From an uncultured Actinomycetota bacterium (GTDB taxonomy: Bacteria > Actinomycetota > Actinomycetes > JACCUZ01): DNA of 64,000 bases. A program made the translations under genes and the position numbers. The stretch is from the NCBI GenBank assembly GCA_963762865.1, contig CAVXNC010000001.1, positions 47,787-111,786 on the forward strand, written 5' to 3'. Under the pieces are notes generated by a model, which saw nothing but the letters and a program-made list of their open reading frames with translations, did no database searches and was not told the DNA's origin. This document shows, piece after piece, positions 5,476 through 19,290 of this stretch (within the stretch, counting starts at the first letter, position 1; every line of letters starts with the position of its first letter).

Positions 5476-7474
5476 ATGACGCGGCCGCGGGGCTACCGGT
5501 ACGGCAGCTGGCACGAGGGGCCAGACCCGCTCGCCCCGCCCTACGACGTGCGGCGCGCCCTGGACCGCCTCGGTGACGACGTGCTCACCGGCTCCACGCC
5601 GCGCGACGCCCTGCGCCGGCTCCTGCGCCAGGGCATGGACGGCGACGGCCCGCGCGGTCTCGACGACATGCTCCGGCGGCTGCGCGAGCAGCGGAAGCGG
5701 CTGCGCGAGAGCGGCCGGCTGGACGGCACCCTGCAGGAGGTGCGCCGCCTGATCGACACCGCGGTCGGGCAGGAGCGGTCGGCGCTCTTCCCGGACCCCT
5801 CCGACGACGCGCGCTTCCGCGAGGCCACCCTCGACGCGCTGCCGTCGGACCCGGCCCGCGCCGTGCGCCAGCTGGACTCCTACGACTGGCGGTCGCCGGA
5901 GGCCGCGCAGACCTTCGAGCAGGTGAAGGACCTGCTGCGCCGCGAGGTGCTCGACACCCAGTTCCGGGGCATGAAGCAGGCTCTCGAGAATCCCGACCCG
6001 GCGGCCATGCAGCGCATCAAGGACATGCTGGCCGGCCTCAACGAGATGCTGGCGGCTGATGCCCGGGGTGAGCACACCCAGGAGCAGTTCGACGAGTTCA
6101 TGGCGGCGTACGGCGACATGTTCCCGGAGGACCCGCGCGACCTCGAGGAGCTGGTCGACCTGCTCGCCCGCCGGGCCGCCGCGGCCGAGCGGATGATGCA
6201 GTCGCTCACGCCGCAGCAGCGCGACGAGCTGGCCGCCCTGATGGCCGGCGCGCTCGAGGACATGGACCTGGCCAGCCAGATGTCCCAGCTCGGCGAGGCG
6301 CTGCGCAGCCGGCGACCGGACCTGGACTGGAGCGGCCGGGAGCGGGTTCGCGGCGAGCAGCCGCTCGGCGCGGGTGACGCGACGAGCGCGGTGCAGGACC
6401 TCGCCGACCTCGAGGAGCTCGAGGCGGCGGTCGGCCAGGACTACCCCGGCGCCAGCCTGGAGGACGTCGACGAGGAGGCGGTGCGCCGCGCGCTCGGCCG
6501 CCGGGCCGCCGACGACCTCAGTGAGCTGCGGCGGCTGGAGCGCGAGCTCGAGGAGCAGGGCTACGTCAACCGGACCGGGCGGCCGGCTGCAGCTGACCGC
6601 GAAGGCGATCCGGCGGCTCGGGCAGACCGCGCTGCGCAAGGTCTTCGCCGACCTGCACGCGACGGCGCGAGGCGGCCATGACGTGAACGACGCCGGCCAG
6701 GCCGGTGAGGTCACCGGCGCGAGTCGCCAGTGGCAGTTCGGCGACGAGCAGCCGCTCGACGTCGTGCGCACTCTCACCAACGCGGTGCGGGCCGGGCGGG
6801 CCTCGATCGGCCCTGACGTCACCCGCCGCGGCATCCGGCTGCGGACAGACGACTTCGAGGTGGCCGAGACCGACCGGCGCACGTCGGCAGCCGTGTGCCT
6901 GCTCGTCGACCTCTCCTACTCGATGGTGCTGCGCGACACCTGGGGCGCGGCGAAGGCGACCGCGCTGGCGCTGCACTCACTGGTCAGCGGGCAGTTCCCG
7001 CAGGACGCGCTCACCATCATCGGCTTCTCGTCGTTCGCCCGGACGCTGTCGGCCACCGAGCTCGCCGAGATGGACGCCGACTACGTGCAGGGCACCAACC
7101 TGCAGCACGCGCTGATCCTCGCCGGCCGCTTCCTCGACGAGCACCCGCAGGCCGAGCCGGTGGTGCTCGTGGTGACCGACGGCGAGCCCACCGCGCACCT
7201 GCTCCCGGGCGGGCAGCCGTGGTTCGCCTGGCCGCCGGAGCCGGAGACGATCGAGCTCACCGTGGCCGAGGTCGACCGGATGACCCGACGCGGCGCGGCA
7301 CTCAACGTCTTCGCCCTCGACGACGACCCGCGGCTGCTCGGTTTCATGCAGGAGCTCGCGCGCCGCAACGGCGGACGGGTCCTGCAGCCCGACCCGCGTC
7401 GCCTCGGGCAGTACGTCGTCAGCGACTACCTCTCGCGACGGTCCGGCGGGCGCCGGGGCCGTCGGGCCGGGTGA
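5476..7474 (+). pseudogene. von Willebrand factor A (VWA) domain protein, Rv0959-like, with an apparent +1 frameshift near 6575-6590
   Basis: The N-terminal ~365 aa are in ORF 5476..6681 and end ...LEEQGYVNRTG. The continuation, ...GGRLQLTAKAIRRLGQTALRKVF...VCLLVDLSYSMV...VVLVVTDGEPT (the VWA MIDAS-type motifs), is in ORF 6374..7474. Total length is 1999 nt, which is 1 mod 3. The shift falls in the run ccgggcggccgg. Confidence 0.65.
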
Positions 7475-14236: not shown

Positions 14237-15088
14237 ATGACGATCGCAGAGTTCGGTGTCCGCTCCATGTCAGCCGCCCTCCGACGGGTGCTGGTGGTGC
14301 GCCCGACGGGCACCGGCGACTTCGCCGGGGCCGGCTGGCGCGTCCCCGACACGGACGGCTTGCGGGAGGAGCACGAGGGCTTCGTCGAGCTGCTCGACGG
14401 CCTCGGCGTCGAGGTCGTCGTCGCCGACGCACCGGACGGCCTGGTCGACGCCTGCTACGCCTACGACCCGGTGTTCGTCACCGGCGTGGGTGCCGTCGAG
14501 CTGCAGATGCGCAAGCCGGTGAGGCAGCCGGAGCCGGCGTTCCTCGCGGCCGAGGTGGAGAAGGCCGGAGTGCCCGTCGTCGGCCGGCTCACCGGCCCGG
14601 CCACCGCCGACGGCGGCGACCTGTGCTGGCTGGACGAGTCGACGCTGGCGGTGGGTCGCGGCTACCGCACCAACGCCGCTGCGCACGAGCAGCTGCGCGA
14701 GATCCTCGGCCGGGAGGGTGTGACGGTCGAGCGGGCCGACCTGCCGCACCACCTCGGCCCCGACTACGTGATGCACCTGATGAGCGTCGTGTCACCCGTC
14801 GCACCCGACCTGGCCGTCGTCTTCGAGCCGCTCGCGCCGGTGCCCCTGCTCGAGATGCTCGCCGAGCGCGGCTACCGCACCGTCGCGTGCGACCCCGACG
14901 AGCTCGACGCCCAGGGCTGCAACGTGCTCGCCGTCCGGCCCGGCGTGGTCGTCACGGCCGACGGCGCTCCCCGCACCCGGGCCGCGCTCGAGGCCGTCGG
15001 GGTCGAGGTGCACACCTACGCCGCCGCCGAGACCAACAAGGGATCCGGCGGACCGACCTGCCTGACGCGGCCGTTGCTGCGCGCCTAG
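14237..15088 (+). CDS. amidinotransferase/DDAH superfamily protein (dimethylarginine dimethylaminohydrolase-like)
   Basis: 283 aa, ending ...GGPTCLTRPLLRA, with the catalytic Cys near the C-terminus. It is divergent from the PLP-enzyme gene. Confidence 0.7.
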   Translation: MTIAEFGVRSMSAALRRVLVVRPTGTGDFAGAGWRVPDTDGLREEHEGFVELLDGLGVEVVVADAPDGLVDACYAYDPVFVTGVGAVELQMRKPVRQPEPAFLAAEVEKAGVPVVGRLTGPATADGGDLCWLDESTLAVGRGYRTNAAAHEQLREILGREGVTVERADLPHHLGPDYVMHLMSVVSPVAPDLAVVFEPLAPVPLLEMLAERGYRTVACDPDELDAQGCNVLAVRPGVVVTADGAPRTRAALEAVGVEVHTYAAAETNKGSGGPTCLTRPLLRA

Positions 15089-15151
15089 CAGAGCACGCCG
15101 CCGGAATCCCGGTACCGACCCCGTCGTTGGAAAGGGCACAGGAGGTCACAC

Positions 15152-15847
15152 ATGCTCTTCGGCAAGTCCAAGCACGAGCTCGTCACCGCGCAGGACGCCC
15201 TTCCGGGCCGTCAGCAGCGACCCTTCGACATCGCACCGCAGCACGTCGTCCTCGGCACCCCGCTGGAGGGCCCGTGGCCTGAGGGCCACGAGGTCATCAC
15301 CTTCGGCATGGGCTGCTTCTGGGGGGCGGAGCGCATCTTCTGGGAGATTCCCGGCGTCCACGTGACAGCAGCGGGCTACCAGGGCGGGCACACTCCCCAC
15401 CCCACCTACGAGGAGACCTGCACGGCGCAGACCGGGCACACCGAGGCAGTGCTCGTCGTCTACGACCCGGCCGCGGTCGACCTCGAGGTGCTGCTCAAGG
15501 CGTTCTGGGAGAACCACGACCCGACGACGCCCAACCGGCAGGGCTACGACGTCGGCACGCAGTACCGCTCCGCGATCTACCCGACCACCGACTCCCAGCT
15601 GGCCGCCGCGGAGGACTCCCGCTCGCGCTACCAGCAGGCGCTCAAGGAGGCGGGCTTCGGCGAGATCTCGACCGAGATCCGGCCGGCCGCCGAGGCCGGA
15701 CCGTTCTACTACGCCGAGGACTACCACCAGGGCTACCTGGCCAAGAACCCGAGGGGCTACTGCAACCACGGCTTCTGCCAGGTGGCCTACAACCCGGCCG
15801 CGCACGGCCAGGACGCCCCCACCAAGGTCGAGCTGCCCGAGTCCTGA
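15152..15847 (+). CDS. msrA: peptide methionine sulfoxide reductase A
   Basis: 231 aa. It has the active-site motif GMGCFWGAE and an AGGAGG ribosome-binding site 7 nt upstream. Confidence 0.9.
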
Positions 15848-16868
15848 CCGGGTCGTCGCGCACCTCGCAGCGCGCCCGGCTACCGCTTGCCCGCGATCAC
15901 CGGCGTGACATTTTCGGCCTGACGATGTCGGATTGGCCGTTCGACGTTCGTTGACATGGTGACGGCAGACACCGGGTCCGCCCGAGCAAGGGGAGCAGAC
16001 ATGCCCGAGTACCTCATCTACTTCAACCAGCAGTGGGTGGGGGACCACACCGAGGAGTGGTTCCGCGGGCGCGGGCCGCTCGCGAAGGCGGTCGTGGACG
16101 AGATCAAGGCCGCCGGGGAGTACCTCTTCGCCGGGGGCCTGGAGGAGGACGGCCCGGTCTTCAGCGCCGACGCCACGAGCGGCACGCTGACGTTCACCGA
16201 CGGGCCCTTCGTCGAGACCAAGGAGTTCCTGGGCGGTCTGACCGTGGTGGACGTGGCCGACGAGGAGGCTGCCAGGATGTGGGCCGGCAAGATCGCGGAA
16301 GCGTGCGGGTGGCCCCAGGAGGTTCGCCGGTTCGGGCGGCTGCCGGACGTCCCCACCGAGGTCGAGCCGCCCGAGTCCTGACCGGTCGTCGCGCACCTCG
16401 CAGCGCGCCCGGCTACCGCTTGCCCGCGATCACCGGCGTGACATTCTCGGCCTGACGATGTCGGATTGCCCGGTCGACGTTCGTTGACATGGTGACGGCA
16501 GACAGCGGGTCCGCCCGAGCAAGGGAGCAGACATGCCCGAGTACCTCATCTACTTCAACCAGCAGTGGGTGGGTGACCACACCGAGGAGTGGTTCCGCGG
16601 GCGCGGGCCTCTCGCGAAGGCGGTCGTGGACGAGATCAAGGCCGCGGGGGCGTACGTCTTCGCCGGGGGCCTGGAGGAAGAGGACGGGCCGGTCTTCAGC
16701 GCCGACGCCACGAGCGGCACGCTGACGTTCACCGACGGGCCCTTCGTCGAGACCAAGGAGTTCCTGGGCGGTCTGACCGTGGTGGACGTGACCGACGAGC
16801 AGGCTGCCAGGATGTGGGCCGGCAAGATCGCGGAAGCGTGCGGCTGGCCCCAGGAGGTCCGCCGGTTC
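15800..16868. repeat. Tandem segmental duplication of about 533 bp (2 copies, about 99% identical), spanning the msrA 3' end, the intergenic promoter and a yciI-like gene
   Basis: The two copies start at 16001 and 16533 with identical upstream sequence (ccgggtcgtcgcgcacctcgcagcgcgcccggctaccgcttgcccgcgatcaccggcgtgacatt...gacatggtgacggcagaca) and differ by a few SNPs and one 3-nt indel. The junction sits after codon 111 of copy 1 (about 16333). Confidence 0.75.
16001..16381 (+). CDS. YciI-like (YCII-related domain) protein, copy 1, with a chimeric C-terminus
   Basis: 126 aa: MPEYLIYFNQQWVGDHTEEW...DGPFVETKEFLGGLTVVDVADEEAARMWAGKIAEA, a YCII-domain pattern. The last 15 aa (GRLPDVPTEVEPPES) are read from duplicated msrA 3'-end sequence; compare msrA ...[10 protein letters not shown]. 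Confidence 0.75.
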   Translation: MPEYLIYFNQQWVGDHTEEWFRGRGPLAKAVVDEIKAAGEYLFAGGLEEDGPVFSADATSGTLTFTDGPFVETKEFLGGLTVVDVADEEAARMWAGKIAEACGWPQEVRRFGRLPDVPTEVEPPES

Positions 16869-16934
16869 AAGCCAGTCCCGAGATTCAGGGCTGAGTCGGC
16901 TCAGCCGACCTCGGTTACGTCCACCACCTCGTAG
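16533..16934 (+). CDS. YciI-like (YCII-related domain) protein, copy 2, with the presumed original C-terminus
   Basis: 133 aa. It is about 97% identical to copy 1 up to ...EVRRF, then continues KPVPRFRAESAQPTSVTSTTS. Confidence 0.8.
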   Translation: MPEYLIYFNQQWVGDHTEEWFRGRGPLAKAVVDEIKAAGAYVFAGGLEEEDGPVFSADATSGTLTFTDGPFVETKEFLGGLTVVDVTDEQAARMWAGKIAEACGWPQEVRRFKPVPRFRAESAQPTSVTSTTS

Positions 16935-17797
16935 CGCGGCGGGTGCGCCTCGCGCATCGCGTGGCAGGTCAGCAGTCCCGGCCGCTCACCCGCCGTCGCC
17001 AGGACCGTGACGATCAGGTTCCTCGGGTAGTGGCGAAGGCGGACCTGCCACCGGCCGTCGCCGAGGTAGATGGTGCCGGCCGGGGTCAGTGCCTCGATGC
17101 GCATCTCCCCGAGCACACGTCGTGCGTGCGTCGTCGCGGCCTGCGCCGCCGGCGCCGTGGTCGTACGCCCTCGGAGCCGGTCGAGATAGACGTTGCCGGC
17201 CTCGTGGGACTCCACCAGGTCGACGACCTCGCCCGGCTCCACCCGGCCGTAGTACAGGCCGTGCGGCATGGCCAGCACGTTGGCGGCGAACCGGTCGCCG
17301 CCGACGTGCGAGCACTCCCAGGAGCGGCCGGGCCGCACCTTGTCCAGCGCCGCCGCGACCGGCCGGCCCTCGACGGCGCAGCAGGTGTCGTGCCGCCCGT
17401 GCGTGCACACCAGGAAGAACGGTTCCTCGGACCGGGCACCGGAGCTGCCGTCGAGGGGCAGGGTCAGCAGCTCGTCGTCCGTCCCGAAGTCACCCCACCA
17501 GGTCGCTTCCCGGCCCGGTCGTGACGACACGACCGCCCATCGGCGACGGTCCGGCGCCCGGTGCCGACCCGGGCGGCGGACCAGGAGGACCCGGAGACCC
17601 TGGGCGATCGCCCGGCCGGAGACCGCCCGGCCGACGTCGGGGTCGAGACGCGAGCTGGTCAGCGCCTGCCGTCCCCAGCCCCCGGGCTGCTCGAGGAGCA
17701 GGAAACCCGCGGCAGGAGCCGCGGTCCCGGCCATCGAGTCGGCACGCAGCCGGCTGGCCACCGAGCAGCGCAGCGGCGCCTCGTCGGCGACGGTCAC
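16901..17797 (-). CDS. sucrase/ferredoxin-like family protein (thioredoxin-like Fe-S fold)
   Basis: About 298 aa. It has LVCTHGRHDTCCAVEGRP (a C-x-H-x...CC cluster). The GTG start at 17797 overlaps the upstream gene's stop as GTGA; an alternative ATG lies further in. Confidence 0.5.
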   Translation of the reverse strand: MTVADEAPLRCSVASRLRADSMAGTAAPAAGFLLLEQPGGWGRQALTSSRLDPDVGRAVSGRAIAQGLRVLLVRRPGRHRAPDRRRWAVVSSRPGREATWWGDFGTDDELLTLPLDGSSGARSEEPFFLVCTHGRHDTCCAVEGRPVAAALDKVRPGRSWECSHVGGDRFAANVLAMPHGLYYGRVEPGEVVDLVESHEAGNVYLDRLRGRTTTAPAAQAATTHARRVLGEMRIEALTPAGTIYLGDGRWQVRLRHYPRNLIVTVLATAGERPGLLTCHAMREAHPPRYEVVDVTEVG

Positions 17798-19083: not shown

Positions 19084-19290
19084 TCAGGCGCCGCTGTCCG
19101 CGCCACCATCGGCACCACTGTCAGCGCCGCCATCGGCACCGCCGTCCGCGCCACCGTCGGCGCCACCATCGGCGCCACCATCGGCACCGCCGTCGGCGCC
19201 ACCATCGGCACCGCCGTCCGAGCCGGTGCCGGCACCTCCGTCAGCGGGGCCGTGCTCCTCAGGGGTCGTGGTCATGTCGTCGTCGAGCAT
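19084..19290 (-). CDS. small acidic repeat protein, (DGGA)n
   Basis: 68 aa: MLDDDMTTTPEEHGPADGGAGTGSDGGADGGADGGADGGADGGADGGADGGADGGADSGADGGADSGA. A GGAGGG ribosome-binding site lies 6 nt upstream of the ATG. The stop is 10 nt upstream of the JmjC gene start. It is encoded by a 12-bp tandem repeat. Confidence 0.35.
   Translation of the reverse strand: MLDDDMTTTPEEHGPADGGAGTGSDGGADGGADGGADGGADGGADGGADGGADGGADSGADGGADSGA
19099..19236. repeat. 12-bp tandem repeat, about 11 units (gccrccatcggc-type), the coding repeat of the (DGGA)n ORF
   Basis: The stretch ...gccaccatcggcaccgccgtcggcgccaccatcggcgccaccatcggcaccgccgtc... has a 12-nt period with no spacers. It is not CRISPR-like. Confidence 0.6.

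Follow-up and report, generated by a model that had tools for sequence, protein, structure and literature searches.

The msrA-yciI locus

The DNA examined here, a stretch of 64,000 nucleotides (nt) from an uncultured Actinomycetota bacterium (assembly GCA_963762865.1, contig CAVXNC010000001.1, positions 47,787 to 111,786 of the forward strand; hereafter the window, in whose coordinates positions are given), contains a head-to-tail direct repeat in which the 3' end of the msrA gene, the intergenic region behind it and a YciI-like gene of the DGPF type occur twice. The genes and repeat units are the following:

15152..15847, + strand: msrA, complete, 231 amino acids (aa) (PF01625); its last 37-41 nt are the left end of repeat unit 1
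15807..16333, + strand: repeat unit 1, alignable part, comprising the msrA 3' end, the intergenic region and codons 1-111 of YciI copy 1 (repeat finder, alignment)
16342..16868, + strand: repeat unit 2, alignable part, comprising an msrA 3' relic, a copy of the intergenic region and codons 1-112 of YciI copy 2 (repeat finder, alignment)
16001..16381, + strand: YciI/DGPF copy 1, 126 aa, with a core of residues 1-111, a G-type tail GRLPDV(P) and then (P)TEVEPPES from the msrA relic (PF03795, tail comparison)
16533..16934, + strand: YciI/DGPF copy 2, 133 aa, with a core of residues 1-112 and a K-type tail KPVPRFRAESAQPTSVTSTTS (PF03795, tail comparison)
16901..17797, - strand: Suc_Fer-like gene, convergent, 298 aa when its start is aligned with relatives (PF06999); the right-hand unique flank

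The original prediction, made from the letters of the window, had claimed a tandem segmental repeat that runs head to tail from the end of msrA through YciI and gives two YciI-like genes, with open reading frames (ORFs) starting at 16001 and 16533, and had noted that the promoter-containing intergenic region is duplicated too. All of this was borne out. The repeat finder, together with a reading of 15000-17600, gave a period of 532-535 nt from start to start (the period limit of Tandem Repeats Finder is 500 nt, and a 533-nt period lies beyond its reach), and the repeat spans the last 37-41 nt of msrA, the entire 153-nt intergenic region and YciI codons 1-111/112. Between the two units there is nothing or only the junction, as in tandem duplications of the microhomology type. 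The C-termini had also been quoted correctly, namely ...PTEVEPPES for copy 1, KPVPRFRAESAQPTSVTSTTS for copy 2 and ...PTKVELPES for msrA, whose homologues of 85-97% identity finish in ...DAPT[KR]VELPE[SA].

The identity of about 99% that had been given for the two units proved too high. The gapped local alignment of 15807-16333 with 16342-16868 has 530 columns, with 507 matches, 17 substitutions and 6 gap columns, the latter representing four indel events of 1, 1, 1 and 3 nt; this corresponds to 95.7% identity with gaps counted and 96.8% with gaps ignored, a similarity far above chance expectation. Divergence is uniform, at about 3% in the msrA relic, the spacer and the coding part alike. The 21 differences in 527 nt are evenly scattered, and the longest clean run, of 103 nt, is not unusual according to a hand calculation from the alignment.

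The full catalytic domain of MsrA is encoded within 15152-15847 (PF01625, 199.9 bits). Both YciI copies score above the gathering cut-off of 24 for the YCII-related domain PF03795 (39.8 bits for copy 1 and 39.5 bits for copy 2), and both carry FTDGPFVETKE, with the D-G-P-F motif that is near-invariant across the family. The two ORFs, the motifs upstream of them and the flanking genes are all intact.

The end of copy 1 and the junction

Three features mark the place where the first unit passes into the second:

16334..16354, + strand: copy 1 tail segment GGGCGGCTGCCGGACGTCCCC, which resembles native G-type tails (nucleotide and protein tail comparison)
16345..16354, + strand: probable microhomology junction GGACGTCCCC, facing msrA 15811-15820 GGACGCCCCC; 10 nt, GGACG(C/T)CCCC, with 1 mismatch
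16345..16381, + strand: msrA 3' relic, consisting of the last 12 codons with the stop copy at 16379-16381; it lacks a start codon and catalytic domain and is not a gene (93% over 41 nt)

As had been predicted, the upstream copy possesses a chimeric end in the msrA frame: copy 1 reads ...EVRRF-GRLPDVPTEVEPPES and stops at the copy of the msrA TGA, the C-terminal peptide encoded at the locus being ...FGRLPDVPTEVEPPES. The homology of the relic to msrA runs unbroken into the copy of the intergenic region. The placement of the break at codon 111 was correct in so far as the homology of the units stops there, after ...CGG TTC (codon 111/112). The 18 nt that follow, however, match native YciI tails. 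Copy 1 goes on with GGG CGG CTG CCG GAC GTC CCC ACC GAG, and its first 18 tail nt are 15/18 identical to the native tail of family locus L048 (GGG CGG ATG CCC GAC GCC) and 13/18 identical to each of L040 (GGG TCG ATG CCC GAC CTC CCG), L003 (ATG CCA GAC GTC CCG) and L082, a close relative (GGG CGG CAG CAT CCC; another close relative, L081, has GGG TCG CAA). The same 18 nt agree with copy 2 at 8 positions and differ at 10, and only 4 of the 11 nt preceding the homology in msrA are identical to the copy 1 tail. At the protein level, native homologues end in GRLPETR, GRMPDAE, GRMPDVSDEV.. or KPLPDVPQ.

Most simply, GRLPDV(P) of copy 1 would be a native YciI tail of the G type, and the true junction would probably lie at 16345-16354, inside a 10-nt microhomology, and not at codon 111. 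The sequence GGACGYCCCC encodes Asp-Ala/Val-Pro in the same frame in msrA and in the YciI tail, and this codon alignment in both genes would explain why the fusion is in frame. We infer the presence of the microhomology in the parental YciI tail from homologues (GAC GTC CCG in L003, GAC GCC in L048). The stretch of copy 1 borrowed from msrA would probably amount to about 8-12 residues, mainly (P)TEVEPPES.

The msrA-derived tails had been said to have diverged more than the body of the repeat, hinting at homogenisation of the copies. We counted 3/41 mismatches in the msrA-derived piece and 14/483 in the body (Fisher P=0.14), or 2/31 in the former when the GTC codon is assigned to the native YciI tail (P=0.25), and there is no tract structure; the claim is therefore not supported. 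One of the three mismatches, GCC/GTC, may be no mutation at all.

Conservation in the family ends at ...EVRRF, and the tails vary in length between 0 and over 20 residues. The AlphaFold2 model of copy 1, which is of low confidence (mean predicted local distance difference test score, pLDDT, 60; predicted template modelling score 0.56), has the element order E-H-E-E-E-E-H-E (YCII-related proteins typically adopt a ferredoxin-like beta-alpha-beta fold of about 100 residues), with the last strand at residues 107-110 and pLDDT below 50 at residues 114-126. The tail is hypervariable in the family and, judging from this model, lies in copy 1 beyond the last beta-strand and is probably disordered. 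The borrowed end is most likely neutral, and the chimeric copy shows no sign of a new function or a gained domain. Queried with copy 1, a collection of 5.8 billion proteins yielded none with the chimeric tail. Homologues of 128 residues with tails GRMPDVSDEVATASTEA were considered as further msrA chimeras and rejected, since their loci (L089, L090) are single-copy and have no msrA directly upstream; their tails are native.

Two family haplotypes

The tails of the family fall into two classes, G-[RSQ]-x-P and K-P-x-P. Counted over 185 homologues, the tail class is tightly linked to the length of the core: G tails go with a 111-codon core (GGL-EED) and K tails with a 112-codon core (GGLEEED), the counts being 58/8/7/109 (Fisher P=1e-30). 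Each window copy shows one complete set of these states. Copy 1 has E40, L42, no extra Glu at codon 48 and a G tail, while copy 2 has A40, V42, the extra Glu48 and a K tail. The DNA at codons 40, 42 and 48 tells the same, with the copy 1 states enriched in, or exclusive to, G-type loci and the copy 2 states being those of the K type. The eight other differences in the coding part are private to a copy, 2-3 of them to copy 1 and 5 to copy 2. Each of the two classes is found at 10 loci immediately downstream of msrA, and they can coexist in one genome; Micromonospora sp. NPDC005299, for example, carries L014 (K) and L020 (G).

The original prediction had regarded the locus as a snapshot of plain duplication. 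Units that were identical at birth would differ by later random changes, and what we found instead are two internally coherent family haplotypes. Recombination with a second allele, at the formation of the array or afterwards, is required on this comparison, because random changes after a plain duplication would otherwise have had to rebuild a family haplotype in one copy by chance.

Relatives of the locus

Searching with msrA yielded the closest relatives, three contigs from three independent samples (L081, L082 and L083) at 90-92% protein identity. Their gene order, DDAH - msrA - single 120-residue YciI - Suc_Fer-like(-) - JmjC(-) - ... - CBS(-), equals that of the window except that they have one YciI. 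This single-copy msrA-yciI arrangement is the one with which a comparison had been proposed. The single yciI is of the G type, ends at a stop of its own and follows a different spacer. Two contigs with 85% msrA identity, L084 and L085, have no yciI at this place; there, a DUF2203 gene and a MarR regulator (5694-6876) fill the slot between msrA and the Suc_Fer-like gene. About 47 nt after the msrA stop (15848-15895 and 16382-16428; CCGGGTCGTCGCGCACCTCGCAGCGCGCCCGGCTACCGCTTGCCCGC) are missing in L081-L083 and present in both units, and this insertion is thus older than the array.

Looked up as exact sequences, copy 1 (with either of two starts), copy 2 and msrA had no entry. A scan of genome collections with the YciI core gave no near-identical genome among the matches listed. 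A metagenome scan with the lineage-specific spacer pattern returned only L086 and L087, and neither a second array nor a further relative bearing yciI; L087 is the same contig as L082, and L086 is about 85% identical and ends before yciI. The array thus appears to be derived, lineage-specific and so far unique to this genome, because the closest relatives are single-copy and the searches brought up the junction nowhere else.

A comparably recent array occurs at just one other of about 90 loci, L026 (L057 holds older, more divergent paralogues). This unrelated metagenome-assembled genome (MAG), with an msrA of 58% identity, carries a tandem repeat of 503 nt at 5861-6363 and 6362-6866, which is independent of that in the window and, at 88% identity between its units, older. 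Its repeat starts 43 nt before the msrA stop and ends 6 nt past the first YciI stop, and both copies are complete. The order is again G/111 first and K/112 second, and the promoter region is much more similar between the units than the coding parts are. As the junctions differ and the msrA tail is non-homologous, this was an event separate from that in the window.

The tail of copy 2 and the right-hand flank

16869..16934, + strand: copy 2 tail, 21 residues; overlaps the convergent Suc_Fer-like gene by 34 nt (16901-16934)

Copy 2 had been presumed to keep the ancestral tail. The comparison lends this no clear support: the contigs of the three closest relatives are G-tailed, like copy 1, and the copy 2 tail has 21 residues against a family mode of 6-8 (the modal length of the family being 119-120 aa). 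Another frame of the tail reads ...CAG GGC TGA at 16892-16894, and one restored base, for instance in the C run at 16877-16879, would turn copy 2 into a canonical protein of 120 aa ending in KPVPEIQG*, which resembles the family tails KPMPEVQR and KPRREAQG. Two observations bear on this. The actual frame starts with KPVPR, like KPVPRRDAQA of L009, which counts against a simple error, and in P0060/L088, a relative at greater distance, the frame likewise runs on into the antisense of the last codons of the Suc_Fer-like gene. K-type tails occur in more distant relatives that share the right-hand neighbour (L088, L025).

The gap between the stops of yciI and the Suc_Fer-like gene is 27-50 nt in the relatives. 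The last 6-9 residues of the Suc_Fer-like protein contain EIRQLP in L081-L083 and DVTEVG in the window, L084 and L088, and from this split it follows that the segment comprising the yciI tail, the spacer and the Suc_Fer-like end was remodelled in the L081-L083 lineage. We also considered that the 3' end of the Suc_Fer-like gene had been imported together with the copy 2 tail. This was rejected, since the C-terminus ..DVTEVG matches that of the outgroup L084 and is native.

Divergence, constraint and possible exchange between lineages

The coding parts of copies 1 and 2 differ by 7 synonymous and 4 non-synonymous changes, which gives a synonymous divergence (dS) of 0.097, a non-synonymous divergence (dN) of 0.016 and an omega of 0.16. 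Under neutrality, non-synonymous changes would be this few with a probability of 0.005, a sign of purifying selection. Conservation is higher in the spacer than at the synonymous sites (4/153 versus 7/77, P=0.046). For scale, msrA has a dS of 0.46 to L081, and yciI one of 0.26-0.28, which is probably near a ceiling set by the extreme GC content at third codon positions. The divergence of the units is comparable to that of deep within-species or sister-species alleles, and with differences of 3-4% and a dS of about 0.10 the event is recent, as it had been called, only in a relative sense. Should the units have started as alleles of separate genomes, the constraint may predate the array, and it does not then prove the current upkeep of both copies.

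The YciI core is 80-95% identical at the protein level and 88-94% at the DNA level across distant genera (L001-L080); for the adjacent msrA the figure is only 51-60%. The window copies are nearer to L005, an unrelated MAG (94% DNA identity), than to the syntenic L081-L083 (90-91%), which suggests gene exchange between lineages.

Origin of the array

On balance, and with limited confidence, we favour the view that the array is genuine and lineage-specific and arose by a microhomology join between a YciI tail and the msrA 3' end in which two alleles were involved. The variable 3' tail of a DGPF-type YciI gene would have been joined illegitimately to the upstream msrA 3' end within the 10-nt microhomology GGACG(C/T)CCCC, codon-aligned in both genes. 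As a result, about 534 bp (the msrA end, the 153-bp regulatory spacer and the YciI domain) would now be doubled, and copy 1 would keep the start of a native G-type tail, GRLPDV, and then read the msrA relic to the msrA stop. The second allele could have entered in two ways. Either the chromosome was joined with incoming DNA of a close relative that carried the other allele, by homology-facilitated illegitimate recombination or by an unequal exchange between diverged molecules, or a plain duplication came first and the other allele then replaced much of one copy. Both mechanisms have precedents in bacteria (PMC3240628, PMC8639346 and bioRxiv 10.64898/2026.02.28.708716). A one-step origin from two diverged molecules fits slightly better than duplication plus partial replacement, because the even divergence would otherwise need two unrelated divergences to be equal by coincidence.

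Several points weigh against this view of the origin. The array is seen in the assembly alone. No parental single-copy genome of more than 95% identity was found, the parental tail and the donor are unseen, and the microhomology is read from a pre-event YciI tail reconstructed from homologues. The G-type relatives L081-L083 are about 90-91% identical to either unit and no nearer to unit 1. The linkage within the haplotypes could partly reflect structural coupling (Lys113 and the extra Glu) and not common descent. Finally, two-step histories are inseparable from a one-step history.

The array resembles microhomology-mediated (RecA-independent) tandem duplications in its head-to-tail units, in its junction at a 10-nt repeat (1 mismatch) which would have been present at both parental sites (on the YciI side to judge from homologues), in the new ORF end created by the join and in the single-copy state of the relatives. 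It differs from them in that the units are not near-identical and represent different haplotypes, for which a plain intramolecular event is insufficient. Homology-facilitated illegitimate recombination, with one homologous and one microhomology end (PMC3240628), would set a donor allele beside the resident one in a single step, with a microhomology join and even allelic divergence. The mechanism is known mainly from naturally transformable species and Escherichia coli conjugation, and not from this lineage; at the present locus the donor, the anchor crossover and any context of competence or conjugation are unseen. As with other chimeric ORFs at duplication joins, the 3' end proper to the upstream copy is gone and this copy finishes in sequence of the neighbouring gene, in the frame of that gene; unlike them, it borrows about 8-12 residues in a hypervariable tail and gains no domain.

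The simplest single event would be a plain, recent intragenomic tandem duplication, with all differences being later point mutations and small indels. The two copies do group with each other as closest neighbours in a tree built from 82 members of the family, their differences are evenly spread without tracts, private substitutions occur in both, and the Glu48 indel lies in a slippage-prone GAG/GAA triplet run. Nevertheless, one copy would have to gain E40, L42, the loss of Glu48 and a G tail by chance while the other has the matching K set, and the tails differ at 10/18 nt immediately after a 527-nt stretch that is 97% identical. An identity of 96-97% and a dS of about 0.10 also mean that the event is not very recent, and we regard such an origin as unlikely.

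Concerted evolution of duplicated bacterial genes by gene conversion is exemplified by tufA/tufB, and the window copies resemble such pairs in being highly identical, silent sites included, with few fixed differences. Accordingly, the array might be an older G+K paralogue pair that conversion has kept about 97% alike, with the type-specific patches spared by selection or by lack of homology. G and K do behave as long-lived classes, both of which some genomes possess, the spacer is more conserved than the synonymous sites (P=0.046), and the independent msrA-G-msrA'-K array of L026, at 88% identity, has a far more similar promoter region. On the other hand, conversion would leave a mosaic of converted and unconverted tracts, and none is seen, the longest gap of 103 nt being not unusual. 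Moreover, relatives lack the pair, the left edge of the array is lineage-specific, and the single G-type gene of the relatives, with its own stop and spacer, is not derivable by simple unequal crossing-over. The relic matches the lineage-specific msrA tail up to the junction, which would be hard to maintain by conversion at the edge of homology. This explanation, too, appears improbable.

An assembly artefact, by which G-type and K-type strains were strung into a false tandem or a repeat was wrongly expanded, is very unlikely. In its favour, every one of the relatives stems from a metagenome, the genome itself is missing from the public collections searched, the units with their divergence of about 3% could pass for two alleles, and two single-base indels between them sit in G runs. 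Against it, the junction of YciI tail and msrA 3' end would occur in no single-copy genome, 10 shared nt are too short for a graph or overlap assembler to join, expansion yields identical copies and not 17 substitutions, and the ORFs, motifs and flanking genes are undamaged.

Upstream motif, leader hairpin and regulation

The regions upstream of the two YciI copies contain the following features:

15926..15951, + strand: promoter-like motif TGTCGG-N13-CGTTCGT, about 75 nt before the copy 1 ATG (alignment A4)
15966..15987, + strand: leader hairpin GGCAGAC-loop-GTCCGCC, between the motif and the ribosome-binding site (RBS) of copy 1; twin at about 16499-16520
16459..16484, + strand: second copy of the motif, upstream of copy 2, with the conserved blocks intact (alignment A4)

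Each YciI ORF has its own motif, leader hairpin and RBS. The regular expression TGTCG-N14-CGTTCGT matches at the same distance in 74/87 family loci, which belong to several actinobacterial orders, and most of the others have a near match; the motif is conserved whatever gene lies upstream of yciI. There are exactly two matches in the window, one per unit, against 0.08 expected. The units differ in the motif region by two substitutions. Since both are confined to the non-conserved spacer, the two copies should be transcribed alike, and the same regulator is expected to act on both.

The hairpin has the consensus GGCGGAC-loop-GTCCGCC (7 bp). In 44 loci, 84% of the cells pair, against at most 49% when the partner is slid; 6/7 pairs change on both sides (alignment A4, columns 66-87), and none of 500 shuffles reaches the observed values. 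Both window copies have one A-C mismatch in the stem. The support comes from this counting of a named helix, as RNAalifold failed to recover the hairpin from the upstream alignment. Rfam gave no match within 15700-17000 at E up to 1, and scans of the locus for sigma-70 promoters and intrinsic terminators predicted none.

The bipartite motif looks like a promoter of an extracytoplasmic function (ECF) sigma factor, possibly ECF42, and the common regulator of both copies would probably be an ECF-type sigma factor. The DGPF motif gives its name to the ECF42-associated family, and the putative match to the ECF42 promoter consensus is a lead and not a test. According to a review, a conserved YCII-domain protein adjoins ECF42 sigma genes (PMC8999054). 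The window proteins share with the ECF42-associated YCII/DGPF proteins the Pfam YCII domain, the T-D-G-P-F motif and the conserved ECF-like bipartite upstream motif; they differ from them in that the locus adjoins msrA and has no sigma factor gene beside it. Within about 5 kb, the neighbours (cgl, DDAH, msrA, Suc_Fer-like, JmjC and CBS) do not include an ECF42 sigma gene, which would encode sigma2-sigma4 domains and a tetratricopeptide repeat (TPR) extension.

The independent arrays of the window and of L026 share the order G then K, and each copy has a promoter and a hairpin. For this reason, one may speculate that the G and K types are functionally distinct partners (for instance in a heteromer, or as proteins of two specificities behind a single ECF-type promoter) and that msrA-G-K arrays have been repeatedly selected. 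We consider this a long shot, and two cases establish no rule.

Implications and additional observations

The locus shows, in a clean case from nature, how a module of promoter plus gene can be doubled through a short microhomology and one of the copies re-terminated in the frame of a neighbour. It also illustrates that apparent young bacterial duplicates can be two recombined alleles, which affects their dating and the reading of dN/dS. The mechanism is of a known kind, and neither point would surprise a specialist in genome evolution. The YciI/DGPF family, unusually conserved (80-95% across actinobacterial orders) and with a fixed motif and hairpin, may merit a study of its own.

Another repeat lies further downstream, between the JmjC and CBS genes. 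This is a tandem repeat of 12/24/48 nt at 19087-19246, in about 3-9 copies with a 77-83% match, which encodes repeats of the GGAD or PSAP type, depending on strand and frame; relatives carry an ORF of 73-79 residues at this place.

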